Assembly (NCBI GenBank): GCA_016188775.1
Contig: JACPHC010000007.1
Coordinates: 28,097-92,096, forward strand
Direction: 5' to 3'
DNA from: Parcubacteria group bacterium
GTDB taxonomy: Bacteria > Patescibacteriota > Minisyncoccia > JACPHC01
DNA length: 64,000 bases
The notes under the pieces were generated by a model. That model was not told the DNA's origin. It made no database searches and worked only from the letters and a program-made list of their open reading frames with translations. Positions within the stretch are counted from its first letter, which is position 1. Each line of letters begins with the position of its first letter. A program made the translations under genes and the position numbers. This document shows, in pieces, positions 48,555-63,390 of this stretch.

Positions 48555-49079
48555 TTAAAATTCTGATAATGCTAGATCAATTTCTTGCATAGCCGCTTCT
48601 TTTGAGAAAAAATCGTCTAAATCTGAATCAAAATTGTTTATTTTTTTTGATTCCGATTGAATCATGGCAAGTTCAAAAACATCCGTTTTTTGAGTCCTGA
48701 AATTAAAAACTGTCAAAGCCAAAAGAATTATAAGCGCGATTCCGGTTGGAAAAAAAATTAGTCGATTGGAGAGGATAGATCTAAATGATTTTGAAAATTT
48801 TTGAAGAGAGAACTTAAAAAGATAACGAATATCTTTTTTGTTTGTGACATTTTCTGATGATAAAGAGATGGAGGCGAGGATTTCGGATAAAAGTTGTTTC
48901 GGCGGAGCGATGTTATCTCTTTGTTTTTTAATCAGCCGCACAATTTCAAAATTTTCTTTGAGATAATCTTTGTCGTCCGGGAAAATTCTCAAAATTTCCG
49001 GAATGGTTTTCCCTTTTTCAATCAATCCAAAAGCTTTATTTAATATTTTTTCTTTTTTTTCTTGTTCGAATTGATTCAT
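48555..49079 (-). CDS. putative membrane anti-sigma factor
   Basis: Overlaps the stop of the upstream ECF sigma factor gene by 4 nt; single transmembrane helix with a cytoplasmic N-domain. Confidence 0.4.
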   Translation of the reverse strand: MNQFEQEKKEKILNKAFGLIEKGKTIPEILRIFPDDKDYLKENFEIVRLIKKQRDNIAPPKQLLSEILASISLSSENVTNKKDIRYLFKFSLQKFSKSFRSILSNRLIFFPTGIALIILLALTVFNFRTQKTDVFELAMIQSESKKINNFDSDLDDFFSKEAAMQEIDLALSEF

Positions 49080-49645
49080 ATTAATTTTTTATTTTTCAAA
49101 TATTGGCGAATTGTTTTAAGCGCCCGGCATTGAATTTGCCTGACTGTTTCTTCTTTTTTCCCCAAAATTCCGGCGATTTCTTTATTAGTCAAATCATTAA
49201 TGAATTTTAAAATAATAACCGTTTGCTGTTCTTCTTTCAAAAATTGGATTGCCTGATAAATTATTTTTTGGTCCTCTTTTTCTTTTAATGATTCTTCTAA
49301 TGTCTGACGAGGCGTTTGAAGTATGTCTTGGTTGTTCGTGAGGATTTCTTTTTTCTTTCGCCAATAATCTATTAAAGTGTTTCTTGCTACCGTAAAAAAA
49401 TAGGCAAGCGGCGTTTTATTTTTTTCTTGGAATCTACCGATGGATTTATAAACTTTTATAAAAACATCCTGCGTTAAATCTTCAGTCACGGTTTTATTTT
49501 TTAATCTGAAATAGATATAGCGAAAAACCGGCGTGAAATAGAGACGATATAGATTATCGAAAGCCGTTTTATCGCCTATTTTCGCCATCATCATTAAATT
49601 TTTCGGATCCTCGGTAATTTCTTCTTTAAAAAAACTAATTTTCAT
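49076..49645 (-). CDS. ECF-type RNA polymerase sigma-70 factor
   Basis: Region 2 DLTQDVFIKVYKSIGRF; region 4 HTH LTNKEIAGILGKKEETVRQI. Confidence 0.8.
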   Translation of the reverse strand: MKISFFKEEITEDPKNLMMMAKIGDKTAFDNLYRLYFTPVFRYIYFRLKNKTVTEDLTQDVFIKVYKSIGRFQEKNKTPLAYFFTVARNTLIDYWRKKKEILTNNQDILQTPRQTLEESLKEKEDQKIIYQAIQFLKEEQQTVIILKFINDLTNKEIAGILGKKEETVRQIQCRALKTIRQYLKNKKLI

Positions 49646-49689: not shown

Positions 49690-51300
49690 CTAATTGGATT
49701 CGGATTTTTTCATTATTTTATAAACCGCGAAAAGAATTAAAGAAGCGATAATGACAGCGCCGGCGCCCAAAAGCGTTTTTAAATTTTCTTTTTGAATTAT
49801 TCCAGAGATACTTGCCGCGATTTGAGACTGAATGGGACTGTTTATTTCTGATTTTAAATCGGCAAGATTTATCGGCGCCGGAGATGATTTTTGAATTTGT
49901 TTTTCTAAAATTACCTTATTAACCGGCATTTTAACGCTGTTTTTATTTTCCGGTTCTTCGGCTGAATTAAAAATATTTTTCCCGCCGGGCGTCGAATTTT
50001 CCGTCCAGCTGAAAGTCCCGTCGGTTTTTCGTCCGGCTGAAAATCCTTCCAGGGCTTTGTCGTAGGCGATTTTATCGGCTATTTCGCCATTGGGATAAAT
50101 AAGATCAATTTCGCCGCCTTTATTATTTAGGGCTAATTTAGTCGTTGGTCGGGATAAAATAAGATAGCCTTTGCCTGAAATAAAAGTTTCTTCGTGAAAA
50201 ATAAAAGCTTTTGAACCGTCCGGCCCGTCGTCTAATTTCCATTGGCTTAAATTTATCAGCCGATTGTTATCATTAAAAATTTCTATCCATTCGGCCTCAA
50301 TGTCTTTGCCGATAGGCGATGGCATAAATTCGTTAATAAAAATGCCCGTTGGCAATATTTGGACGTTTAGCTGATCGGTTTTTGCGGCAACGCCGTCCGA
50401 GATGATTAAAGCGGCAATATAATCGCCTTCATATTTATAATTATGCTCGATTTTTATGCCTTCGCCGGTTTGGCCGTCTCCAAAATTCCATTTATAAGTC
50501 AGTTGAGAATTATTTGGATTTGAGGAATTTGAACCGTCAAAAATAACCGTTTGGCCGGCTTTAGCTTGAACATCTTTTCCGGCATCAGCGGTAAAAGATT
50601 CGGGCGAATTAATCGATTGCGTCTCGGGTGTTGGCAAAGAAGTTTGATTTGAAGAAGAAGTTTGAGTCGTTGTTGCATTGATTGAATTATCAGTTTGAAT
50701 TGTTTGAATCGTTAAAATAGAATTTTGCGATCTGGGAGTGCCGATAATTGGATTTCCAAGCGCGTCTTTTCCGTTAATGGTTATCTGATTATTTGTTTGC
50801 CACGATCCATCAGTTGCTTTTTCCATTGAAGCTTTTAAATCATTCTTTCCGGCTGGCCAGACGGACAAAGCGTCGATTTCATCAATAATATTTCCAGCGG
50901 CGTCTTTTAAAACAAGACGTTCTCCGGCATTGGCCAGCCCGTTTCCGTCGCCAAATGATCCAGAAACATCGGCCTTAATATCGGAAATCGTGCTGTCATC
51001 GGTGCGTTCAATTAAATAATAATTATTAGGAGAAATATTTCCGACCAAAGAAATAATTTTTGTATCTCCGCCGGCCTCGTAAAGAACCCAACCTTCTAAA
51101 TTTATCGTCTCGGAAGTCTTATTGAAAAGTTCAATCCATTCGTCCGAAAAGCTCGCCTTTGTTCCCATCCAGGCGACTTCATTTATAATGACGTCGCCGG
51201 TCGCGGTTCCGTAAGAAATTTTTGGGAAAAAAATAAAATAAAAAGAGATAAAAAATAAACCGGCGCCAGATAGTATAATTTTTAGCGATTTTCTTTTCAT
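49690..51300 (-). CDS. secreted surface protein with two lamin-tail (LTD) domains and a PKD domain, C-terminal transmembrane anchor
   Basis: Two VIINEVAW...EWIELFN LTD patterns; PKD WNFGDG...Y..G.Y. The start is chosen at MKRKSLKIIL (signal peptide); the listed ORF extends to 51381. Confidence 0.6.
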   Translation of the reverse strand: MKRKSLKIILSGAGLFFISFYFIFFPKISYGTATGDVIINEVAWMGTKASFSDEWIELFNKTSETINLEGWVLYEAGGDTKIISLVGNISPNNYYLIERTDDSTISDIKADVSGSFGDGNGLANAGERLVLKDAAGNIIDEIDALSVWPAGKNDLKASMEKATDGSWQTNNQITINGKDALGNPIIGTPRSQNSILTIQTIQTDNSINATTTQTSSSNQTSLPTPETQSINSPESFTADAGKDVQAKAGQTVIFDGSNSSNPNNSQLTYKWNFGDGQTGEGIKIEHNYKYEGDYIAALIISDGVAAKTDQLNVQILPTGIFINEFMPSPIGKDIEAEWIEIFNDNNRLINLSQWKLDDGPDGSKAFIFHEETFISGKGYLILSRPTTKLALNNKGGEIDLIYPNGEIADKIAYDKALEGFSAGRKTDGTFSWTENSTPGGKNIFNSAEEPENKNSVKMPVNKVILEKQIQKSSPAPINLADLKSEINSPIQSQIAASISGIIQKENLKTLLGAGAVIIASLILFAVYKIMKKSESN

Positions 51301-51392
51301 ACGCGTCAATATAAATATCAAACTAAATTTAGTCAAGACAAATTTAACAAACAGAAAATAAAGCGTTAGATTAATTTTCATTATTCATCGGA

Positions 51393-51461
51393 AGGTTTCA
51401 AAATCAATTATAGCATTTTCTTTCATACTACGTAGTATGAAAGAAAATGCTATAATTGATT
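51393..51461. repeat. 60-bp perfect palindromic element with an outer GGTTTCAAAATCAA arm (left terminal-inverted-repeat-like copy)
   Basis: aatcaattatagcattttctttcatactacgtagtatgaaagaaaatgctataattgatt. An inverted copy lies at 63336..63390 and a degenerate copy at 62697..62730. Confidence 0.65.
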
Positions 51462-51699
51462 TTTTTATCTTCTTAAAAGATTTTCTAATTATTTAAAGAG
51501 TTGATTTTTTTCTCATGCTTTTTTAAAAATAGCCTAGTTTGTTGACTTATTGATTTATATATTTATACTGAATTTTAATGAATCCCGCACGGAGCCGCGA
51601 TCGCTTCTTCTTGGGATACGCATAAATATTATAAATTAGAAATTATAAAAATTAATACAAGCGGATTGCGTCTTTTGATCGCGATTTGCTTCGTACGGG

Positions 51700-52320
51700 A
51701 TGAACCAGTTTTCCGAAAAAAATCTTAAATTAGCTATTGCTCTCCATCGTTTAACGACCTTTTTCCCCGAAGAAGAGATTCTGAAAAACCAGCTTCAAGA
51801 AAAAGCCAATGAAATATTTACTAATTCTTATTTGTTGGAAGAAGATGGCTTGAATCTGCCTGACGATAAGAGAATTGATGTTAAATATAATTTATTGGCC
51901 AGCCTTCGTTTAATGAACGGTTTTTTGCTTTTAGCCAAAAATTTGGATTTCCCCAAAAAAGAAAGCCTGGAAATATTGGAAAATGAATATCAGAAAATTT
52001 TCGAACAATTAAAGTATAAATTTGAAGAAAAAATTAACCATTTTGAAAGAGAAATTGATAGCGTTGAAAAAGAAAAGGAGCCGATTTTATCCCAGCTTTC
52101 TTCCCGACAATTAAGAATTATCAAAGAGATTAAGAAAAACAAAGAAATGCGAGTGGGGGATTTGGCCCATACTTTTGGAAACCGGTTTTCTCCCAAAACA
52201 TTTCAGCGGGAACTTCAAGAATTAATGGCTAGAGGATTAATTGAAAGAACCGGAGATTATAAAAACACTTATTATGTTTTATCCCGAGGGCTTGAAAAAG
52301 TTATAAACCCCGTTCATTAA
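51700..52320 (+). CDS. DNA-binding protein with a C-terminal winged helix-turn-helix (possible regulator or replication-initiator-like protein)
   Basis: C-terminal LSSRQLRIIKEIKKNKEMRVGDLAHTFG...ELMARGLIERTGDYKNTYYVL wHTH pattern, followed directly by a repeat array. Confidence 0.45.
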   Translation: MNQFSEKNLKLAIALHRLTTFFPEEEILKNQLQEKANEIFTNSYLLEEDGLNLPDDKRIDVKYNLLASLRLMNGFLLLAKNLDFPKKESLEILENEYQKIFEQLKYKFEEKINHFEREIDSVEKEKEPILSQLSSRQLRIIKEIKKNKEMRVGDLAHTFGNRFSPKTFQRELQELMARGLIERTGDYKNTYYVLSRGLEKVINPVH

Positions 52321-52331
52321 TCAGTAATTTT

Positions 52332-52503
52332 ACGGGACAATTCGGGACATTAATCGGACAATTTATCGGACAAAATATTGTGAAAGAAAATATTTATATT
52401 TGTCCGATAAAATTTATCGCTTTACTCAGATTTTAATTCAAAAATTTTTCAATTTTGTATATTAACAATTTATCAGACAATTTAAGACATTTGTCTGATA
52501 AAT
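52332..52503. promoter_or_regulatory. iteron/operator-like array: at least seven copies of ATC(G/A)GACAA in direct and inverted orientation, including four direct repeats phased at 10-12 bp
   Basis: Direct copies at 52332, 52342, 52353, 52365 and 52471; inverted copies at 52400 and 52491. They form two palindromes, TTATCGGACAA-N27-TTGTCCGATAA and TTATCAGACAA-N11-TTGTCTGATAA. Confidence 0.55.
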
Positions 52504-52554
52504 CGAGTTAAACTTTAATAATATACTTCATTACTCCTAAGCAAAACATTTTAC

Positions 52555-52866
52555 TTGTCGTTGCGAGAAGGTATAAACCGACCCATTTGTCATCGCGAGG
52601 CGATAAAATCGCCGAAGCAATCTTTCAATGGTTATGAACTAAAAGCATTATTATATATACAATATACATACACATTAAAATATAACATTATAAAACTCGT
52701 TTATTACGAAACTTTTGACAGTCCGGAGGTAGCTATTCAAAGAAAAAAACAAACTAAAGGCGGTTCCCGTAAAAAGAAAATATATTTAATAAAAAGCATC
52801 AACCCTGAATTTAAAGATTTGAGTGATTCTCTTTGAGATTGCTTCGCCTTCGGCTCGCAATGACAA
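52555..52866 (+). pseudogene. decayed GIY-YIG nuclease gene bracketed by the GTCATYGCGAG / GAAGCAATCT inverted repeats
   Basis: Retains the C-terminal ...KLVYYETFDSPEVAIQRKKQTKGGSRKKKIYLIKSINPEFKDL of small GIY-YIG proteins; the N-terminal GIY/YIG region is shortened and degenerate (LLYIQYT). Inverted repeats lie at 52588..52622 and 52835..52866. Confidence 0.5.
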
Positions 52867-52927
52867 ATTAAAGTAAGATAATGTTCGCTTATCGGAAAAA
52901 TAACATTACAATTAAATGATATTTTCT

Positions 52928-53000
52928 GTCGTCATTGCGAGGCGATGAAATCGCCGAAGCAATCTCTCAATGACAAAGCAAATTCGGCTCGCAATGACAA
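52928..53000. repeat. further copy of the GTCATTGCGAG...GAAGCAATC / CTCGCAATGAC miniature element
   Basis: gtcattgcgaggcgatgaaatcgccgaagcaatctctcaatgacaaagcaaattcggctcgcaatgac. Confidence 0.6.
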
Positions 53001-53586
53001 GGAGTGGCAGAATTGACATTTTTTGAATTTTAAAATAGAGTGTTTTTCGATTATTGTTTGTTCATTGTTTGACATTGAAAAATTTGTTATTATTAGTTTA
53101 TCAGGCTTTAAAAAAAGTTATCCACAGTTGTAGGCTTGCAGTGAAAAATAGAAGTCGCTATAATAATAAAGAAATGAATTTTAGTCGGCATTTTCTACGA
53201 TGATTAAGCCTTTTTGGCTTATTTTGACATTATAAATTTGAAAGCTTTGCCGGATATTGTTAAAATAAAATTAGCTTGCAATTCGCGAGTTATAATTTAT
53301 AAATTGTAATCCGCGAATTGCAAGTCCGGATCCTTGAAAATTAAATATGAAACAGTATGGTTGAGAGATAAAAGTATTATTAGTATTCTTAAATTTTTTT
53401 CTGTTTGTTAGCTTCGTGGTCGATGAAATTGGAAATCAAAAAAAGTCGAATTTTTTTGATTCAATAATTTCAGCTCTCTCTAAAAATTTGACATTATAAA
53501 TTAGAAAAATAAAATTGACAGGCTTAAGAAGATTGTCGGTTTTCTTAGCCTTGAAAAATTAATTAAAATTAAATCAAAATTAAATT

Positions 53587-56500
53587 ATGGAAAGTATATT
53601 AAGTTCCAGAATGAAAAAAGGGATTTCAAAAATCTCTTCAATCGTTCTGACTTTGACTACTACCATTTGGCTGTCGGGCCTTGCTGCCTTGATGCCAGTG
53701 GCCGTAGTTCACGCGGTTCATACTCCCGCCACCGAAAGTTTCACCTTCAAGAAAACGCTTAAATTCGGTTCGCGGGGCACTGATGTAACCGAACTCCAGC
53801 AAATCCTGATTGACGAAGGATTTCTGGATATAGACGAGCCAACTGGATATTATGGAAGTTTAACAAGAACGGCAGTTATGGATTTACAGGAAGAAAATGA
53901 TTTGCCGAGAGTTGGCGTAGTTGGTCCGTTAACTCGCGCGATATTAAATGATGTTCTTGAAGGAGGAACGGCCACTCCGGCTCCGGCTCCAACTCCGACT
54001 CCGACTCCGACCGCGACAGTTCTCGGAGTAAAAGTAGCTTCAGACACTCCGGCAGCCGGACCGGTGGCTAAAAACTCGCAAGATGTTTCAATGACAAAAT
54101 TAGATTTCACCGCGGGTGATTCAGATGTCACTATTTCATCTTTGAAGGTGACTCGAAGCGGTCTTTCCGCCGACTCAGATGTTTCTAACGTCAAATTATG
54201 GTGGAAAGGCGTTCAAATTGGTTCAACTCAAGCTCTTTCAACCACTACTCACACAGCGACCTTTACCGGTCTTAATGTGGTAGTCGCGAAAAACACGACT
54301 GAATCAATTTTGATCAGCGCTACTATAGCGGCTAGCCCGACCGTTGGCGACACTATTGTTCTTGGTATTGCCGCTCAAGGCGATATCACTTCAACGGTAG
54401 CGTTTTCAGGCACTTATCCTTTAAATGGTAATGCTAAAACAACTGCCGGCATTTCCGTCGGTCAGCTCGATGTTGATAAACAAACAACTCCGGCCGCGGC
54501 CACTATTCTTTCCGGCGCTACCGATCAGTCTATTGCGGCTTGGAAATTCGCGGCCAATGCCACTGAAGGATTTAAGGTTCAGAAAGTCAAAATTACCAAT
54601 ACCGGTTCAGCGGTTCCTGCTGATGTTTCTAATTTGAAACTGAAAATCGGCGCTGACGTGGTCAGTCCGACCGTTACCGCTTTAGGAGCGGATCAGACAG
54701 TCACCTTTGATCTTTCCGCCAGTCCGATTGCTATTACCGCCGGCACCAATAAGATTATCACCGCTTACGCTGATGTCGCGGCTGGAATCAATTCCGCCCG
54801 GACCATTATTTTTGAGATTACCAATGTCCAAGATGTGATGGCCACTGGCGATAATTCCGGCGGAGGCGTCACTATTACTCAATCAAGCGGCACCGCTTAT
54901 GTTAAACAGACCGGCGCTACTATGACTATTGGCCAGGGCACTTTAACTGTTGCTTTGGATACGGCGGTTAATCCGTCAAATAAGACTTATGTTAAGGGGA
55001 CCCCGGGCCGTCTTTTTTCCGCCTTTAAATTCTCAGCTGGTTCTACTGAAGGCGCTCGGATAACGGAAATTACCTTGACTCGGGTCGGCTCCGGCACAGC
55101 CACTGACCTTTCTAATATCACTTTGGTCAATAACGCCACTAACGCGGTTATTGCCACTGGCGGCAGTATTACCGGCAGCACGGTTAAATTCGGTCTTAAC
55201 ACTATTGGCTATGACGCCACTGGTTTGTTTGATGTGCCTGTTTCCGGCAATGTGACAGTTTTAGTTAAAGCTGACATTGCTTCAGGCGCGACTGCCACCG
55301 CGGTTGATAGTTTGGAGATTGCCGCTAATACCGATATTAAAGCTGATGGTCTGACTTCTAAATATGATATTGCCTCAGGCAGTATTACTGATAGCACTGG
55401 TTCGGGCAGTGAGGCCGACCATACCATTGGCGCTAAAGGCGACTTAACCGCCACTTTGTCAGCCAATGCTCCAGCCGCGGCTAATATCGTTAAAGGCGCG
55501 ACTGGTCTTAAATACGCCACCTTTACTCTAACGGCTGGCGATGGCGAAGATGTGGTTGTTTCCGGCTTGACTTTGACTCTTCAGAAATCAACTGGCACAG
55601 CCGCGGGTTCAGGCGACTTTACTAATGTTAAAGTTGTTAGAAGCGATAATAACGTTCAATACGGTTCAACTGTGGCTTCTCCGACCAGTTCCGCTTCATT
55701 CTCCGGTAATTTAGTGATTCCGGCCGGCACAGCCATTGATCTTCAAGTCTACTCCGATGTCCCGACTGGTTCCGCTTCTACCACCAGCCGCGTCACTATA
55801 AACGCCGCGGGCGATTTGACCTTGACCGGTTCTTCATCCAGCGCTTCAATTACCGCTGGCGGCACATACGCGATTAACGCTAACACAATGACTGTTGCTT
55901 CTGGCACGATTGTTCACGCTATGTTGGCTACTCCTCCGGCTTCCAGTTACGTAATCAATGCCGCCGGAGTAACTCTGGCTAAATTATCCTTGACTGCTGG
56001 CACGGCCGAAGATGTTAAAGTGACTACTATCAAGCTGACGGCCGCGACTTCCGGCGATACCGGATTTGTCGGCGCCAGTACTGCTCAGACTGATTTTGCC
56101 GATCTTAAGCTGGTTGACGATTCAGCCGGTACTAATATCTCTATCAGTCCGTCTGTCTTTACCGACGGCACTCCCGACACTATTACTTACACCGGTCTTG
56201 AATACACAGTGCCTAAAGGCATTCAGAAGATTATTCGAGTCGTTGGCACTGTTAAAGCCTCAACCGGAGTCTATATTATCGGTGTTAAAGCGAATGGCGA
56301 TGTTGTTGGTTCAGGTCTAACTTCCGGCGCTTCTATCAGCTCAACCGGCGGCACAGTTGCTTCTAAGAATATTACTATGACAACTGCCGGCTCTCTGGCT
56401 GTGGCTGATGGCGGCTCTCCGGTTAAAACTATTGTCGCTGTTGGAACTAGCGGCAAAACAGGCGTTGACTTTGCCAGAGTTAAGCTGACCGCCACTAATG

Positions 56501-57399
56501 AGGATATTAAGATTTCCAAGATTGTTATTACCAGATCTGGCGGCGCTAATGGAGATTTCTCCGCTGTTAAACTCTATGACACCACTACCAGTTCTACGGG
56601 TACGCAGATTGGTTCAACTATAAATTTTGTCGGCACTGCCACTACTGTTGATTTTAACTTCAATCCCGGATCTGAATTCGTTGTTACTAAAGACACGGAT
56701 AAATATATTACCGTCAGAGCCGATCTTAACGGCACTTCTACCGGTGCGGCTTCCAATGATCAGCCAATCTTGTCGCTTGCCGCTACCACTGACATCACTG
56801 CCACTGGTGTTGCTTCCGGATCGTCTTCAATCACTATTACCGGCACAGTCACCGGCAACGCTCAAGCCTTAGTCAAGGCTAAGCCGATTATTGAAAAAGT
56901 GGCCTTGTCAACTCTTGATATTACTCCGGGCGTTATGACTGTGTTTAAGCTCAAGATTACGGCTGATGGTGGCGATGTTAAATTCTTAAGTTCGACTGCT
57001 TCCAATAATATGAAATTTACCATCGCGCAGGCTGGAGGCACGACAACAACGAGAAATATCAAGATTGTCTTATCAACCGCTCCGGGCACTGTTTATGATC
57101 AAAACGCTAACAGCGCTACAACTGGAGCGGGCAACATTGATTTCACAACCGCTGGCACGGCCAACTTCGGATTTGAAGAAAATGAATTGACTGTTTTCTC
57201 CGGTACGCCGGTTACTCTTGATGTTCAGGCTGACTTGACCGATTACGCCACAGCCGGTGAATCATTCAGGCTTGATATAAATAATGCCAACACTGATCTT
57301 AGTTACAATGACGGAAGCGCGACAACCTCTGATATCAATTTGACAAGTTTCCTTGGTTATGGATTGCCAATTACCGGCGATACTGTGACTAAGAAATAA
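53587..57399 (+). CDS. giant (1270-aa) surface protein: signal/anchor, peptidoglycan-binding domain, TP-rich linker, at least 10 tandem Ig-like repeats of about 95 aa
   Basis: PG_binding_1 pattern (TELQQILIDEGFL...GYYGSLTRTAVMDLQ), linker PAPAPTPTPTPT, then repeated ...LTATLSANAPAAANIVKGATGLKYATFTLTAG...V..L.L type units. GC content is higher than the flanks. Confidence 0.65.
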   Translation: MESILSSRMKKGISKISSIVLTLTTTIWLSGLAALMPVAVVHAVHTPATESFTFKKTLKFGSRGTDVTELQQILIDEGFLDIDEPTGYYGSLTRTAVMDLQEENDLPRVGVVGPLTRAILNDVLEGGTATPAPAPTPTPTPTATVLGVKVASDTPAAGPVAKNSQDVSMTKLDFTAGDSDVTISSLKVTRSGLSADSDVSNVKLWWKGVQIGSTQALSTTTHTATFTGLNVVVAKNTTESILISATIAASPTVGDTIVLGIAAQGDITSTVAFSGTYPLNGNAKTTAGISVGQLDVDKQTTPAAATILSGATDQSIAAWKFAANATEGFKVQKVKITNTGSAVPADVSNLKLKIGADVVSPTVTALGADQTVTFDLSASPIAITAGTNKIITAYADVAAGINSARTIIFEITNVQDVMATGDNSGGGVTITQSSGTAYVKQTGATMTIGQGTLTVALDTAVNPSNKTYVKGTPGRLFSAFKFSAGSTEGARITEITLTRVGSGTATDLSNITLVNNATNAVIATGGSITGSTVKFGLNTIGYDATGLFDVPVSGNVTVLVKADIASGATATAVDSLEIAANTDIKADGLTSKYDIASGSITDSTGSGSEADHTIGAKGDLTATLSANAPAAANIVKGATGLKYATFTLTAGDGEDVVVSGLTLTLQKSTGTAAGSGDFTNVKVVRSDNNVQYGSTVASPTSSASFSGNLVIPAGTAIDLQVYSDVPTGSASTTSRVTINAAGDLTLTGSSSSASITAGGTYAINANTMTVASGTIVHAMLATPPASSYVINAAGVTLAKLSLTAGTAEDVKVTTIKLTAATSGDTGFVGASTAQTDFADLKLVDDSAGTNISISPSVFTDGTPDTITYTGLEYTVPKGIQKIIRVVGTVKASTGVYIIGVKANGDVVGSGLTSGASISSTGGTVASKNITMTTAGSLAVADGGSPVKTIVAVGTSGKTGVDFARVKLTATNEDIKISKIVITRSGGANGDFSAVKLYDTTTSSTGTQIGSTINFVGTATTVDFNFNPGSEFVVTKDTDKYITVRADLNGTSTGAASNDQPILSLAATTDITATGVASGSSSITITGTVTGNAQALVKAKPIIEKVALSTLDITPGVMTVFKLKITADGGDVKFLSSTASNNMKFTIAQAGGTTTTRNIKIVLSTAPGTVYDQNANSATTGAGNIDFTTAGTANFGFEENELTVFSGTPVTLDVQADLTDYATAGESFRLDINNANTDLSYNDGSATTSDINLTSFLGYGLPITGDTVTKK

Positions 57400-57967: not shown

Positions 57968-58080
57968 GGCGGCGAGCGAAGCGAGTCTGAATCGAGCGAG
58001 GCAAGTTGGTCGAGCCGAGCGAGAACTTTTCATAACAAAGCATTATCACAATGCCGCGCCGCAAGCGGCGCGGATGCTTT
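57917..58080 (-). repeat. full-length copy D of the GC-hairpin repeat family (reverse orientation), inserted into hicA
   Basis: Its reverse complement matches 19515..19695 except for a 24-nt indel. The listed ORF 57812..58033 (MKSSRSA...) is its translation. Confidence 0.6.
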
Positions 58081-58091
58081 ATTTCTCAAAC

Positions 58092-60257
58092 ATGATAAAA
58101 AAAAATATATTAAAGAAAATTATTCGCTTGGGCGTGTATTTAATAATTTTTACCCCTCTTTTAGTTTTTTCTGCCACTATTTATCCTGCTTTGACCGGAA
58201 AAGTTGTTATTTTCCGTATTTTAATTGAAATTTTATTTATTTTTTGGCTTTTCTTGATTTTTTTTTATAAAGAATATCGGCCCAATTTAAAATCTCCGCT
58301 TTTTTTGTCAATTTTTATATTTATATCAGTTTCTTTTATCTCCGCTTTTTTAGGAATTAATCCTTGGCAAAGTTTTTTCAGCACTGCCGACCGTTTAATG
58401 GGTATTTTCACTTGGCTGCATTTTTTTGGTCTTTTTTTGATAATTTCAATTTTCTCTAAAGAGGAGCGGGAAAAATTTTTAAAACTTACCTTATTCGTCA
58501 GTTTTCTCGTTAGCCTTTCCGCGATTTATCAAAGAATTAATCCCGATTTTCTTTCTTTTGGCAGCAGCGAACGTCTGGCCGGCACTATTGAAAACCCGGG
58601 TTTTTTTGCCAGTTATTTAATTCCGCATATTTTTTTGGCCCTGTATTTTGTTTTTCAGAATTATTCCGCATCCAATATCTCAAATTTTATATTTTACATT
58701 TTTTATTCCCAATATTTTTGGCTTCTTCTTCTGGAATCTTTGATGTTGTTTTTTACCGGCACTCGGGGCGCGATTTTAGCTTTTGGATTTACTTTGATTT
58801 TATTAGTTTTTCTTTTTAGTTTTACGAGGCTAAGCCTCGTAAAAAGCGATTTTAAAAATTCGTTTCCGAAGTTTTTTAGACGTCCGGCATCTTTAATTTT
58901 GGCAGTTTTAATATTAATTTTTGCTCTAGGTTTTCTTTTTCGCCATCAACCGTTTTTTTATCAGATTCCATTTTTGAAACGTTTCGCCGGACTTTCTTTT
59001 AACGATCCGACAATTCAGACGAGATTTTTAACTTGGAAAATAGCTTTTAAGGGATGGCAAGAACGGCCATTTTTTGGCTGGGGTCCGGAAAATTTTAATA
59101 TTCCATTTAATAAATATTATGATCCGTCTTTTTTGAAATACGGTTTTCAAGAAACATGGTTTGACCGGGCGCATAATATCATTTTTGATAATTTAATAGC
59201 CGCCGGTCTTTTAGGTCTTATTAGTTATTTGGCTATTTTTTTCAGCGCTTTTTATTTGATTTTTAAATCAAAGGAATTTATAACTCAAAAATTAGTTTTA
59301 ATCGCCGGACTTCTCGCCTATTTTATTCAAAATCTTTTTATTTTTGATACCTTTGTCGGTTTATTGCCTTTATTTTTAGTTTTTGGTTTTATCAATACTC
59401 AATCCGTTTCCCGGCCTTTATTGGAATTATCCGGCAAAACCGGAAAAATTTTAAAATTATTTATTTTTTTTGTCGTCGGAGCATTAATTTTTACAGCCTT
59501 AGTTGTAAATTTTTCCACTTTTAAAAACGCTGTTAGTTTAAGAAACGCCATTTTAGCTGAATTGAAGAATAATTTTAATCTTTCCAGAAATATAACTAAA
59601 AAAAATTTAAGTTCTTTTTATCCTTATAAAGAAGAAACTGGCTTGCAATTTATGGCATTTATAAAACAATCTTTTGATAAAGGGTTAGATAGAGGAGAAG
59701 CGATTCAAGATATAAAATTAGCGGAAGATTTTTTTTCTTTAATCTCCTCCCGCCACAAAAAAAATTCGTTTTTATATTTCCAATATGGCAATTTTTTAAA
59801 TTCAGCCGCTAATTACGATAAAGCTTATCTCGCTAAAACCGATGAAGTGTTTAATAAAGCTTTGGAATTAAGCCCTCGGCGTCAGCAAATTCATCATTCT
59901 CTTGGAGTTAATAAAATAATGGAAGGAGAATATGAAGAGGCGATTTGGATATTTAAAAAATCCGCTTCTTTTTATAACGCGGCTCCCGATCCCCATTTTT
60001 ATTTAGGTCTTGCTTATTTTGCGATGAAAGACGAGAAAAACGGATTTGTTGAAATTGAGAAAGCCTTGGAATTCGGCTACACTGCGAAAACGCCGGAAGA
60101 AGGATTATATTTAGGGGATATTTATGAAAAAAATATTAATCTTCAAAAAGCCCTTTTTTTCTACGAATCGGCTTTATCGCTGGATCCGCAAAACAAAAAA
60201 ATTCAAGCCAAAGTTGAAACGATTAAAAATCAATTAAATAATGAAACTTCCAACTGA
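58092..60257 (+). CDS. polytopic membrane protein with an O-antigen-ligase/polymerase-like (Wzy_C) domain and C-terminal TPR repeats
   Basis: At least 10 transmembrane helices; WGPENF...FDRAHNIIFD (Wzy_C AHN motif); a C-terminal TPR region of about 250 aa. The start is moved to MIKKNIL because the listed start lies inside the repeat. Confidence 0.6.
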   Translation: MIKKNILKKIIRLGVYLIIFTPLLVFSATIYPALTGKVVIFRILIEILFIFWLFLIFFYKEYRPNLKSPLFLSIFIFISVSFISAFLGINPWQSFFSTADRLMGIFTWLHFFGLFLIISIFSKEEREKFLKLTLFVSFLVSLSAIYQRINPDFLSFGSSERLAGTIENPGFFASYLIPHIFLALYFVFQNYSASNISNFIFYIFYSQYFWLLLLESLMLFFTGTRGAILAFGFTLILLVFLFSFTRLSLVKSDFKNSFPKFFRRPASLILAVLILIFALGFLFRHQPFFYQIPFLKRFAGLSFNDPTIQTRFLTWKIAFKGWQERPFFGWGPENFNIPFNKYYDPSFLKYGFQETWFDRAHNIIFDNLIAAGLLGLISYLAIFFSAFYLIFKSKEFITQKLVLIAGLLAYFIQNLFIFDTFVGLLPLFLVFGFINTQSVSRPLLELSGKTGKILKLFIFFVVGALIFTALVVNFSTFKNAVSLRNAILAELKNNFNLSRNITKKNLSSFYPYKEETGLQFMAFIKQSFDKGLDRGEAIQDIKLAEDFFSLISSRHKKNSFLYFQYGNFLNSAANYDKAYLAKTDEVFNKALELSPRRQQIHHSLGVNKIMEGEYEEAIWIFKKSASFYNAAPDPHFYLGLAYFAMKDEKNGFVEIEKALEFGYTAKTPEEGLYLGDIYEKNINLQKALFFYESALSLDPQNKKIQAKVETIKNQLNNETSN

Positions 60258-62427
60258 AAAAAAACTTATTCAAATTTCAGTCATTCTTATTTTTTTATCA
60301 TTATTCTTGCCATCATTTCGTTTTAAAAGTCAGCTTTTTATTCCTTTTAAGTCTTTGCTTTTTCAATTTTTTGTTAGTTTATTATTTTTGATTTATTTTT
60401 ATCTGACGCTTAATAATTCCAAATTTCGTCCTAAATTTTCCTGGTTAAACTTAGCTGTTATTTTATTTTTAATCTCTTCTTTAATTTCTTTATTTTTTGG
60501 GGTTAATCCGGAGAAAAGTTTCTTCGGAACTCTTGAAAGAATGGGGGGATTTCTCTCTCTTTTTTATTATGGCGTTCTCTTTTTTATTTTAAGTCATTTA
60601 TTTAAAGGAGAATACCAAGAAAAATGGCGAAAATTTATAAATTGGAGTTTAATCGCCGGCTTTCTCGCTGCTTTTTGGGGAATAGGACAATGGCTAAAAA
60701 TCTCTTTTTTATTTTTTGAAGGAGAACGGGTAAGCGGGCCGATCGGCAATCCGATTTTTTTCGCTGCTTATCTTCTTTTTATGGTATTTTTTAGTTTATT
60801 ATTTTTTTTGGAATCAAAAACAAAACAAGCAAAAATTTTATACAGCTCTGTTTTGATGATTTCTGTCTTCGCGATCATTCTTTCCGGAAGTCGGGCAGTC
60901 TCCCTCAGTCTTATTTTAGGGTTAATTTTTTTCAGCCTTTTTTACGCTTTTTTAACTCAAAATAAAAAAATAAAAAAAATTTCCGTCGCCGTCGCGATTT
61001 TTATTATTTTGATATTCGGTTCAATTTTATTTTTTAAAAATCAGCCTTTTATTCAAAATAATTTTTATCTTTCTCGATTAGCTCTCGGTTCTTTAAAAGA
61101 TTTTCGGAATCGGTATCTCGCTTGGCAGATCAGTTGGGAAGCTTTTAAAGAGCGGCCCGTTTTTGGCTGGGGCGAGGAAAATTTTAAAATCGCTTTTAAC
61201 AAATATTTTAGTCCAGCCTATTTTGACACGCCAACAGCGGAAGTTTTTTTTGATCGCGCCCATAATGTTATTTTTGATCGCTTAACAAGCATTGGAATCG
61301 TTGGCCTTTTGAGCTATCTTTTTATTTTTCTCGCTATTTATTTGACAGTTTTTCAATTAAAAAAAGGAAAAAAAATAAACGAAGGCCAATTTGTCATTTT
61401 TCTTGTTTTGCCCGCGGCGTATTTTTTGCAGAATTTTTTCGCTTTTGACACCTTCCCGACCTATCTTAAGTTTTTCTTTTTTTTAGCGTATTTAAATTCG
61501 TTTGTTTTAGGTGGCGAGCCCAAAAATAAATTTGAGTTTTTTAAAAAAATAAATTTTCCGTCTCAATATCGTCTTTTTATTTTTATTCCGGTTTCTTTTT
61601 TGATATTTTTCGCGATTTATAAATTTAATATTAAGCCGCTAATTTCAATTTTTTATTATGTTAAGTCTCAAAACGTCCAATTATTGCCAGAAGCGTTGAA
61701 ATACTACAAAAAATCCGTTTCTTTTAATACCTTCGCCAACGCTGACATTCATGATTATTTTTCAAGGCGGTTTTTTCAAAATGTCGCCAATGATTTTATA
61801 AAAACAAAAGAAGAGAAACAAAAATATCTTTTAATGGCCGAGGAGGCGATGCGAAAAGCCGCGATTCTAGACCCCCAAAATTCTGATTTTTGGCTGAAAT
61901 TAGCCGGAATTCAAATAATGCTTGTAGAAAATGACATTAAAGAAGGACTGGAAAGAGCGGAAATTTCTTTAAAAAAAGTTTTGGAATTAAGTCCAAATAA
62001 TTTGCCCGCCCTTCTTGATCTAGCGGAGGTTAAAAGACTTCAGGACCGGCCGGAAATATTTTTAGAGCTGGCAAAAAAGGGCGTAGCATTAAATTCGAAA
62101 TCATCCGTGGCGCATTGGTATTTAGCCGCGGCTTATATCGCGAATAAAAATGAAATTGACGCGCAAAAAGAATTTGATATCGCTTACGGTTCAGGCTACA
62201 AAGAGGATATTCGAGATTTAAGATATCTGGCGGGCATTTATCGAAAATTAAATCAATGGCAGAAAGTCGCGAAATTTTACGAAGAAATTATAAAAAAAGA
62301 TTCAACAAACGCGGATTTTTATCTGCGACTGGCTGAGGCTTATTATAATTTAGGAAAAATCGATCAAGCGGAGAAAATTTTTGAAAAAGCGAAAACGATT
62401 AATCTCGATTTGGAAAAAATAAAATAG
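60241..62427 (+). CDS. tandem paralogue: Wzy_C-like polytopic membrane protein with C-terminal TPR repeats
   Basis: WGEENF...FDRAHNVIFD; same architecture as the upstream gene; 17-nt overlap with it. Confidence 0.6.
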   Translation: MKLPTEKKLIQISVILIFLSLFLPSFRFKSQLFIPFKSLLFQFFVSLLFLIYFYLTLNNSKFRPKFSWLNLAVILFLISSLISLFFGVNPEKSFFGTLERMGGFLSLFYYGVLFFILSHLFKGEYQEKWRKFINWSLIAGFLAAFWGIGQWLKISFLFFEGERVSGPIGNPIFFAAYLLFMVFFSLLFFLESKTKQAKILYSSVLMISVFAIILSGSRAVSLSLILGLIFFSLFYAFLTQNKKIKKISVAVAIFIILIFGSILFFKNQPFIQNNFYLSRLALGSLKDFRNRYLAWQISWEAFKERPVFGWGEENFKIAFNKYFSPAYFDTPTAEVFFDRAHNVIFDRLTSIGIVGLLSYLFIFLAIYLTVFQLKKGKKINEGQFVIFLVLPAAYFLQNFFAFDTFPTYLKFFFFLAYLNSFVLGGEPKNKFEFFKKINFPSQYRLFIFIPVSFLIFFAIYKFNIKPLISIFYYVKSQNVQLLPEALKYYKKSVSFNTFANADIHDYFSRRFFQNVANDFIKTKEEKQKYLLMAEEAMRKAAILDPQNSDFWLKLAGIQIMLVENDIKEGLERAEISLKKVLELSPNNLPALLDLAEVKRLQDRPEIFLELAKKGVALNSKSSVAHWYLAAAYIANKNEIDAQKEFDIAYGSGYKEDIRDLRYLAGIYRKLNQWQKVAKFYEEIIKKDSTNADFYLRLAEAYYNLGKIDQAEKIFEKAKTINLDLEKIK

Positions 62428-62782: not shown

Positions 62783-63313
62783 ATGGCTAAATTTTTAAAA
62801 AGGAATCGTTTAACCAAAGAAGAGCAAGAAAAAGCGGTGCTTACTCTTTGCCAGGCCTTGGTTGTTATTAAAGATTTTAATGAGGCGGCAAGTTTACTTG
62901 TTGATCTTTTTTCACGTCAAGAAATGGAAATGATAGCCAAACGTTTAATGATTGCTAAATTTCTTATTCAAGGGAAAAGTTACGATGATATTCGTCAAAA
63001 TCTAAAAGTGAGTCATGCTACTATCGCGAGGGTTAGCTCTTGGCTAGAACAATCCGGCGCGGGGTATCGTTTAGTGATTGAACGGTCAAAAAATTTAAAA
63101 TTATCAGAATTATCAAAAAGCAAGATTTCCAATTGGAGTCAATTGAGACGACGTTATCCTTTATATTTTTGGCCCCAGATTCTTCTTGAAGAAATAGTTC
63201 GTAAAGCGCAAAAAAGAGATCGAGATAAATTACTTAATACCTTAGATGTATTGAAAAAAGCGGGAGAAAAGAATCAACTTTTTAAACAATTAGAAAATCT
63301 TTTAAGAAGATAA
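62783..63313 (+). CDS. TrpR-related YerC/YecD-family DNA-binding protein
   Basis: AKRLMIAKFLIQGKSYDDIRQNLKVSHATIARVS matches the Trp-repressor-like HTH pattern; 176 aa. Confidence 0.5.
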   Translation: MAKFLKRNRLTKEEQEKAVLTLCQALVVIKDFNEAASLLVDLFSRQEMEMIAKRLMIAKFLIQGKSYDDIRQNLKVSHATIARVSSWLEQSGAGYRLVIERSKNLKLSELSKSKISNWSQLRRRYPLYFWPQILLEEIVRKAQKRDRDKLLNTLDVLKKAGEKNQLFKQLENLLRR

Positions 63314-63335
63314 AATTTAATTATATTAATTATTA

Positions 63336-63390
63336 CATTTTCTTTCATACTACGTAGTATGAAAGAAAATTTAATTTTGATTTTGAAACC
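63336..63390. repeat. right (inverted) copy of the 60-bp palindromic element, with the GGTTTCAAAATCAA arm on the outside
   Basis: cattttctttcatactacgtagtatgaaagaaaat plus ttaattttgattttgaaacc. It is the reverse complement of the left copy's outer arm. Confidence 0.65.

Follow-up and report, generated by a model that had tools for sequence, protein, structure and literature searches.

Bacterial DNA-binding proteins that read groups of short repeated sites are known from several systems. Repressors of the DeoR/GlpR family are oligomeric and use several operator sites, and PhoB, OmpR, and MetJ each recognize tandem short sites with multiple copies of a single small DNA-binding domain. At iteron replicons, a winged-helix Rep protein is accompanied by an array of direct and inverted words and by AT-rich DNA. 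The candidate phyla radiation (CPR, or Patescibacteria) is a large, mostly uncultured part of bacterial diversity with tiny genomes, and to our knowledge almost nothing is known experimentally about its gene regulation. Here we analyze an array of repeated 9–10-bp words at positions 52331–52500 of a 64-kb stretch of Parcubacteria-group DNA (contig JACPHC010000007.1; the whole stretch is termed the window), which follows the gene of a winged-helix protein (51700–52320, plus strand).

An earlier note on this DNA had taken the array for part of a plasmid-like replication or partition unit, or of a tight autoregulation unit. From comparison with related loci we consider it likely (probability about 0.7) that the array is the cognate multi-site operator of the winged-helix protein encoded upstream and that it controls transcription into the downstream gene. 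The sequence comparisons are best explained if regulator and array are inherited together as a module, present in hundreds of these ultra-small bacteria and widespread among CPR chromosomes. One odd repeat array thereby turns into a testable candidate regulator-operator pair recurring in more than 1,000 protein clusters, and the pair comes with a site consensus, three specificity variants, and putative targets, i.e. an extracytoplasmic function (ECF) sigma operon located by giant surface proteins and a GalU-like enzyme. If true, it would be among the first cis-regulatory codes for CPR and would offer a way into the control of the cell surface in these episymbionts.

The locus resembles each of the described systems in part. 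The helix-turn-helix (HTH) of the protein family is of the same type as that of the DeoR/GlpR repressors, such as DeoR, GlpR, AgaR, and SrlR of Escherichia coli. The family nevertheless does not have the DeoR architecture, because its HTH is C-terminal, reversing the domain order, and no DeoRC domain was matched in the family; a four-helix bundle replaces this sugar-phosphate sensor, and the sites lie downstream of the regulator gene. With the pho boxes of PhoB, the OmpR sites, and the met boxes of MetJ, the array shares short head-to-tail sites about one helical turn (10–11 bp) apart, but it also includes inverted copies, its regulator has no receiver domain and no homology to these proteins, and multimerization is proposed to proceed through the four-helix-bundle core. 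The combination of a winged-helix protein, direct and inverted words, and AT-rich DNA is shared with the iteron systems of RepA of pPS10, RepE of F, and π of R6K, whereas the CPR module shows no Rep homology and no plasmid or phage relatives, differs in site length and period, and has a conserved chromosomal context. Finally, the N-terminal 105–110 residues of the regulator superpose on 2GSC (XCC0516) and 2RLD (BT_0352), bundle proteins of the PF05635 group to which the Avd protein of diversity-generating retroelements also belongs. Those proteins are single-domain and have no HTH, and Avd works with a reverse transcriptase; no retroelement was found near the regulator gene in the window. An Avd-like bundle joined to a winged helix, a stop-to-start array, CPR-wide conservation, and linkage to an ECF sigma or GalU-like gene form a combination that is undescribed in the searchable literature.

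The repeat array in the window

In the array, a word of the type (T)ATC(G/A)GACA(A) is found eight times between 52331 and 52500, in the order ++++-++-. Sites 1 (TACGGGACAA, 52331–52340) and 2 (TTCGGGACAT, 52341–52350) are degenerate direct copies 10 bp apart, followed by the direct copies of site 3 (AATCGGACAA, 52352–52361, 11 bp after site 2) and site 4 (TATCGGACAA, 52364–52373, 12 bp after site 3). The GGACA cores of these four plus-strand sites start at 52335, 52345, 52356, and 52368, which gives the spacings of 10, 11, and 12 bp. Site 4 also serves as the left arm of a first palindrome, the right arm of which is site 5 (TTGTCCGATA, 52400–52409), equal to TATCGGACAA on the minus strand; an AT-rich spacer of 26 nt (52374–52399) holding GTGAAAGAAAAT separates the two. 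About 60 nt of AT-rich DNA then precede site 6 (TATCAGACAA, 52471–52480, plus strand), the left arm of a second palindrome. Site 7 (TTTAAGACAT, 52481–52490, plus strand) follows 10 bp later, and the last site of the array, site 8 (TTGTCTGATA, 52491–52500), is TATCAGACAA on the minus strand and forms the right arm.

A repeat search returned perfect 13-nt arms for both palindromes, 52362–52374 with 52399–52411 (24 nt apart) and 52468–52480 with 52491–52503 (10 nt apart). Sites 7 and 8 together make a tight pair, AGACA-TT-TGTCT at 52485–52496, with the layout GGACA-N(0-4)-TGTCC of relatives. Between sites 4 and 5, a TATATT at 52395–52400 may represent a -10-like element.

The word ATCRGACAA was observed seven times in the window versus 0.84 times expected, a count reached in none of 100 shuffles, and five of these seven exact copies fall within 147 bp (52353–52499). 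With a relaxed pattern, the densest 200-bp stretch contains five sites and the maximum elsewhere in the window is two; no further cluster of the 7-mer TCRGACA occurs in the 64 kb outside the array. These results confirm that the array is real and non-random. They also agree with the description in the earlier note, which had counted at least seven copies of the 9-mer after the stop codon of the winged-helix gene, four of them direct and phased at 10–12 bp, had seen two palindromic pairs, and had suggested a search for the word elsewhere.

A CPR-specific family of winged-helix proteins

The open reading frame at 51700–52320 is a genuine gene. It encodes 206 amino acids, and its product is identical to HYV52_02745 (NCBI), which is encoded on a 94,994-bp contig of a metagenome-assembled genome of the Parcubacteria group. 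The protein is predicted to consist of an N-terminal four-helix bundle (residues 3–131), a linker, and a C-terminal DeoR-type winged helix (residues 135–194). Its AlphaFold2 model has a mean predicted local distance difference test score (pLDDT) of 90.3, with values of 88–98 in the N-domain, and shows the winged helix as helices 135–147, 152–158, and 165–177 and a wing at 181–194; the predicted recognition helix reads SPKTFQRELQELMA (SPKTFQREL). Foldseek searches of the PDB with the C-domain retrieved winged-helix repressors of the ArsR, MecI, and MarR types. Matches of the window protein to HTH_DeoR and MarR models stayed below threshold (19.7 bits for PF08220, with a cut-off of 21). Of 40 family members compared with PF08220 (HTH_DeoR), 38 gave a match, the best at E = 3e-11, and the family also matched the HTH regions of the NCBIfam models for GlpR, AgaR, and SrlR. 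Model, fold matches, and sub-threshold hits thus bear out the C-terminal winged helix that had been read from the sequence alone.

For the N-domain, Foldseek retrieved 2GSC and 2RLD, members of the "23S rRNA IVS / S23" four-helix-bundle family, with target template modeling (TM) scores of 0.73–0.79 and root-mean-square deviations of 2.1–2.2 Å over 103–108 columns. Both structures crystallize with five chains, and Avd is a pentameric barrel (PMC6182149). Neither the window protein nor the 40 members examined matched PF05635 at E ≤ 0.01. Links at the sequence level were found with NF008911 (2 of 40 members, E = 5e-4) and with an Avd model (1 of 40, E = 6.5e-4), and a profile search matched 2GSC at E = 0.03.

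Detecting the family took an exhaustive search. A word-index search with the single protein returned that protein alone, an exhaustive HMMER (phmmer) search gave 617 representatives at 50% identity (E ≤ 1e-3), and a profile search gave at least 1,671 family clusters at 90% identity. The family is CPR-specific; where the source gives a name, it is "DeoR family transcriptional regulator", and the organisms are Patescibacteria or Nealsonbacteria. All members share a helical N-terminal domain of about 110 residues with the motif LTLALYRVTxxFPxxEPLK..REKA and a C-terminal HTH, and the linker between the two domains is the part of the family that varies most in length. The window protein matches the family profile A1 over its full length (E = 5e-54, hmmsearch), and on these sequence matches it is a member of this large, uncharacterized CPR family.

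Site arrays at loci of the main subfamily

We collected 80 genome loci of the main subfamily (T1) with a subfamily alignment that carries no information on DNA words, and 83 non-redundant loci were analyzed; with the subfamilies described below, the comparison spans about 160 related loci, all on CPR chromosomal contigs. On three long contigs, the homolog is followed by an ECF sigma gene on the same strand, a DUF5667 protein, and a giant surface protein, often with an LTD protein nearby, and a k-mer screen of these three loci placed clusters of TAGGACA exactly at the end of the regulator gene.

The same picture emerged from all 83 loci. AGGACA reaches 13–25 copies per kb within 50 bp on either side of the regulator stop codon, against about 0.3 per kb elsewhere, and the density of TGTCCT peaks just after this stop codon. 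In an unbiased 7-mer enrichment, TAGGACA ranked first (75 of 83 loci, 80-fold). Copies of RRTAGGACA extend from the stop codon to the next gene in 75 of the 83 loci, three or more sites are present in 67, and the resulting logo is RRTAGGACAW. The spacing of direct copies peaks at 10–11 and at 19–22 bp, corresponding to one and two helical turns. Direct copies usually come first and an inverted copy follows, with a gap between half-sites of 0–6 bp (mode 3), which is the layout of the window array; AT-rich spacers of the TACATATATA type are common.

Fifty-five copies begin within the last codons of the regulator gene and are spread over the three reading frames (26, 21, and 8), the TAG of the motif being the stop codon in 26 of them. 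As all three frames are used, conservation is of the DNA word and not of a peptide. In 80 of 82 loci, a homolog of the ECF sigma gene of the window comes next, and the distance from the end of the palindrome to the sigma start codon has a median of about 25 nt. The promoter region of the regulator gene itself shows little enrichment of sites. Tight autoregulation, one of the two roles that had been suggested for the array, is therefore not the best reading: the sites occupy the 3′ end of the regulator gene and the DNA downstream, and they reach the start of the next gene, not the regulator promoter.

Two arrays carry additional palindromes. In L069, the inverted sites are located inside a perfect palindrome of about 56 nt, and in L083 GC-rich hairpin repeats are inserted between sites; arrays therefore tolerate, or attract, palindromic insertions.

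Recognition helices and site words in further subfamilies

A second subfamily (T2) was represented by 80 metagenome loci. Its recognition helix region reads SSKTIQRDL...GEKRWTxYSL, which the SPKTFQREL of the window protein resembles, and overall the window protein is about 30% identical to T1 and T2 members alike. The gene downstream of T2 regulators encodes a GalU-like nucleotidyl transferase (PF00483, NTP_transferase) in 52 loci. T2 sites are about 15-fold enriched at the regulator stop codon and have the words TCGGACA, TCAGACA, TAGGACA, or AAGGACA; often, the final copy and the ATG of the gene that follows overlap, as in A-TGTCCGATA. A third subfamily (T3, helix SIKTLQRDL; L122, L128, L136, L137, and L150) has the core ATAA[AG]CGACA in the same direct-then-inverted layout.

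We counted site words from 60 nt before to 200 nt after the regulator stop codon. In T1 (helix SKRTLRRD, 82 loci), TAGGACA was found 271 times, next to 2 TCGGACA, 1 TCAGACA, 4 TAAGACA, and 8 [AG]CGACA. In T2 (helix SSKTIQRD, 53 loci) the same words numbered 18, 25, 14, 5, and 6, respectively. The five T3 loci (helix SIKTLQRD) had 16 copies of [AG]CGACA and none of the four other words. The single window locus (helix SPKTFQRE) has 3 TCGGACA, 2 TCAGACA, and 1 TAAGACA, with neither TAGGACA nor [AG]CGACA; its words are thus the T2 variants, in step with its T2-like helix. It is chiefly this co-variation of recognition helix and site by subfamily that leads us to propose the adjacent protein as the one binding the array. 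The proposal draws further on the fact that the array accompanies the regulator gene regardless of the gene that comes next, be it an ECF sigma gene, a nucleotidyl transferase gene, or, as in the window, neither. In this respect the related loci strongly back the proposal in the earlier note that the array is an element with several protein-binding sites and that the winged-helix protein next to it is its partner.

These data also bear on the possibility that some other factor binds the sites, either the neighboring ECF sigma with RNA polymerase, in which case the sites would be a promoter, or another regulator, the linkage to the winged-helix gene being only positional. ECF sigma factors commonly autoregulate, the T1 array lies directly upstream of an ECF sigma gene, and GGACA is loosely similar to -35 elements (TTGACA or GGAAC). 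However, arrays of the same design are found where the next gene encodes a nucleotidyl transferase or where no sigma gene is located downstream, as in the window, and the site variants track the recognition helix of the regulator. In addition, GGACA and TGTCC are 0–6 or about 23 nt apart, a spacing incompatible with a -35/-10 pair, and the ECF promoter reading was dropped for this reason. We regard binding by another factor as improbable.

In seven T2 loci (L114–L117 and L143–L145), the 200 nt that follow the regulator gene are free of sites; what these loci have in common there is a conserved non-coding sequence, ttgacagggt..agctagccgatatagttga..gtgtggaaaagtgctattgctacga, for which no Rfam match was found and which could be an unannotated RNA or a promoter region.

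DNA sites versus RNA hairpins

Palindromes that end close to a start codon could also act as hairpins in RNA or single-stranded DNA, folding in the transcript or extruding as cruciforms. They would then terminate or attenuate transcription or mask the next start, the direct copies being incidental. Folding lends this some credit, as the RNA of the window array forms two 13-bp stems with a minimum free energy of -39.5 kcal/mol (z = -3.4 versus shuffles), and the single-position difference between the two palindromes, G versus A, is compensatory. In relatives, the gap of 0–6 nt between half-sites is loop-like, and the palindrome ends 4–50 nt before the next start codon, with the T2 site overlapping the ATG. 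Yet the direct copies are equally conserved, and phasing of the kind they show, at 10–11 and 19–22 bp, belongs to double-stranded DNA. Palindrome arms agree in 72% of cases at positions -4/-3 and at background level further out, and neighboring direct copies agree in 57–63%. Arm complementarity thus stops at the 9-mer, and direct neighbors share flanks as often, which fits a protein site and not an RNA stem; hairpin covariation was rejected on the same grounds, the similarity of arms being no greater than that between direct copies. The stem sequence is itself conserved rather than freely co-varying, and the site variants follow the recognition helix of the regulator.

No consistent U-tract follows the stem, and a terminator scan found nothing in the array, so that an intrinsic terminator was rejected. 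Searches of Rfam with the whole window at gathering thresholds, and with 51300–53700 at E ≤ 1, gave no known RNA family in the array. Hence, we favor double-stranded DNA sites over an RNA structure, and consider hairpins as the functional units a poor prospect.

Chromosomal context and the replicon proposal

The remaining suggestion of the earlier note, an iteron-type origin or a partition site of an integrated or remnant plasmid with the winged-helix protein as its Rep- or ParB-like component, draws on a superficial likeness of layout, in that direct repeats in phase and inverted copies occur together with AT-rich DNA next to a gene for a winged-helix protein. A gene followed by its own site array is also the arrangement of sopB-sopC and parB-parS, which the locus recalls. 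The note had proposed a homology search of the protein against the Rep_3/RepA and ParB/KorB families; Pfam, NCBIfam, PHROGs, and fold searches revealed no signal of these families, nor of ParA or DnaA. The sites measure 9–10 bp and are spaced at 10–12 bp, as opposed to iterons of 17–22 bp spaced at about 22 bp, and in about 130 loci from many CPR lineages the chromosomal setting of the array is constant, with an ECF sigma or nucleotidyl transferase gene after it. No DNA or protein match was obtained among 72,556 plasmids, 50,697 phages, and IMG/VR.

The genes of the window itself are of ordinary chromosomal kinds (type IV pilus genes, tRNAs, and cell-wall enzymes, among others), and the array-bearing contig is part of a Parcubacteria chromosome. 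The array has an LTD/PKD protein, an ECF sigma factor, small membrane proteins, and a surface protein as neighbors; no gene for Rep, ParA, ParB, DnaA, or DnaN was found among the window neighbors, and no cluster of DnaA boxes. GC skew was uninformative, with no switch at the array. A Rep gene, a location on a mobile replicon, and the length and period of iterons are thus all missing, as are the genes of a ParABS system, and we abandoned the origin or plasmid-remnant proposal as very improbable.

Proposed mechanism

The site unit of the array is 9–10 bp long, with a GACA core and a subfamily-specific 5′ flank, here TATC(G/A)GACA(A). From the stop codon toward the next gene, the array presents head-to-tail sites about one helical turn apart and then at least one inverted copy. 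If the array is an operator of the adjacent protein, the N-terminal bundle, which has the fold of the pentameric Avd/23S-IVS proteins, would oligomerize the regulator, and the linker of variable length would let several winged helices fill irregularly spaced and oriented sites. This model of an oligomer with flexibly tethered winged helices, based on predicted folds, would lead one to expect the variable gaps and mixed orientations of the sites. Through cooperative binding, the resulting nucleoprotein complex would control transcription entering the next gene, either by occlusion of a promoter between the sites or as a roadblock to read-through from the regulator's own gene. Conservation, position, phasing, and the co-variation of protein and site are features of the loci themselves, and it is from sequences and models that we infer binding, the oligomeric state, and the direction of regulation. 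The usual target is best explained as the ECF sigma operon in T1 and the GalU-like nucleotidyl transferase in T2.

A bolder version of this model, in which a pentameric Avd-like barrel with five tethered winged helices wraps the stop-to-start array and constitutes an undescribed regulator class, appears doubtful to us at present. The complex would then be a self-encoded "gate" that meters how much transcription starts at, or reads through into, ECF sigma operons and envelope-sugar genes. If true, this gate could be a core circuit for envelope and host-contact control in CPR episymbionts, which have few transcription factors.

Several observations weigh against an operator bound by the adjacent protein. 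The co-variation of helix and site rests on three clades, and so on few independent events. Sites are entirely absent from at least 5 of the 83 T1 loci (L014, L016, L024, L034, and L039), and also, as judged by eye, from L048 and L054. A rigid dimer would not usually have half-site gaps that vary from 0 to 6 bp. The distance from the last site to the next start codon is 4–20 nt in many loci, or the two overlap, which fits control at the RNA level as well, and attempts to place a sigma-70-type promoter within the arrays gave no convincing candidate. The tie of the N-domain to PF05635/Avd is weak at the sequence level (2/40 and 1/40 members, E about 5e-4), a sequence search of solved structures found no family member among them, and the searchable literature yielded neither a description of the family nor a binding study of any member. 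In the window, finally, the usual target gene is not downstream, so that the array could be functionally orphaned.

Gene neighborhood of the window array

The regulator gene is adjoined by a divergent gene for an LTD/PKD surface protein (49690–51381, minus strand). Behind the latter, displaced and inverted, is the ECF sigma factor gene (49076–49645, minus strand), and beyond it are two genes for small membrane or coiled-coil proteins, also on the minus strand. On the 3′ side of the array, a 93-aa open reading frame (ORF) with a TTG start and no family match (52555–52836, plus strand) is followed by the first large gene, which encodes a surface protein of 1270 aa with a PG_binding_1 domain (53587–57399, plus strand). 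Compared with the canonical loci, the ECF sigma, LTD, and giant surface-protein genes are all kept in a rearranged order. DUF5667 was not detectable in the 237-aa or 174-aa proteins of the window, leaving that part of the canonical cluster unconfirmed here.

Because the sigma operon, with the LTD gene at its head, is relocated and inverted, the array is followed, from 52501 on, by about 1.1 kb of mostly non-coding, repeat-rich DNA and then, at 53587, by the start of the giant surface-protein gene. The 64-kb window has no nucleotidyl transferase gene, its ECF sigma gene lies upstream of the array on the opposite strand, and no target gene is situated within about 50 nt of the last site, where one would be expected in this family. 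One may thus ask whether the array is a decoupled relic in this genome, controlling nothing since the sigma operon moved and an ORF and repeats were inserted downstream. The inverted position of the operon behind the LTD gene is in line with this, as are the 93-aa ORF without a family match and the repeat-rich DNA that fill the distance of about 1.1 kb from the last site to the next large gene; the assembly from another sample also breaks in this region. On the other hand, the eight sites, the two perfect 13-nt palindromes, and the intact regulator ORF argue for continued selection, and the giant surface-protein gene, which normally belongs to the cluster, remains downstream of the array in unchanged orientation. 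A relic is therefore an unlikely account, and the intactness of array and regulator ORF suggests that the module is probably still active.

Several other features were noted downstream of the array. By eye, the C-terminal half of the 93-aa ORF product has a GIY-YIG/UPF0213-like look, without Pfam support. The ORF is flanked by 42-nt repeats GTCATYGCGAGGCGATRAAATCGCCGAAGCAATCT at 52589 and 52931 and by TTCGGCTCGCAATGACAA repeats at 52849 and 52983, and an independent Logan assembly of the same sequence stops inside this region (52555–53000). The giant surface-protein gene is preceded by two direct copies of a promoter-like 21-nt sequence, TTTGACATTATAAATTWGAAA (TTGACA-N16/17-TAAAAT), at 53223–53243 and 53487–53507, and a 50-nt palindrome (53275–53324) is located between them. 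Downstream of the surface-protein gene, a low-GC stretch (0.31) at 58074–62427 encodes two tandem paralogs of about 727 aa each, with Wzy_C (O-antigen ligase-like) and TPR domains.

Palindromic elements upstream of the regulator gene

A perfect palindrome of 64 nt (51400–51463, with imperfect arms extending to 51391–51472) is located between the divergent starts of the LTD and regulator genes. Its 34-nt core ATTTTCTTTCATACTACGTAGTATGAAAGAAAAT recurs at 63335–63372, directly after the stop codon of a Trp-repressor-like gene (62783–63313). We had considered the palindrome as a bidirectional extended -10 promoter and dropped this reading, since the core recurs as a post-gene hairpin. The ATTTTCTTTCATACTACGTAGTATGAAAGAAAAT element scores as a bidirectional terminator-like hairpin, and Rfam searches with the 51400–51463 hairpin gave only sub-threshold matches resembling miRNA precursors. 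It appears to be a repeated palindromic element that is oddly placed in a divergent promoter region.

In the spacer of the first array palindrome, GTGAAAGAAAAT at 52380–52391 is a near-copy of one arm of the 51400–51463 palindrome (14 of 16 positions identical over 52376–52391). Words of this type have 39 matches in the window versus 28 expected when two mismatches are allowed, so they are not clearly over-represented and the sharing may be due to chance.

Between this palindrome and the regulator gene, a GC-rich imperfect inverted repeat was read directly from the sequence at 51586–51606 and 51679–51699 (CCCGCACGGAGCCGCGATCGC ... GATCGCGATTTGCTTCGTACGGG). It encloses about 70 nt of AT-rich DNA, ends at the regulator ATG, and could be a structured 5′ leader or a repeat element.

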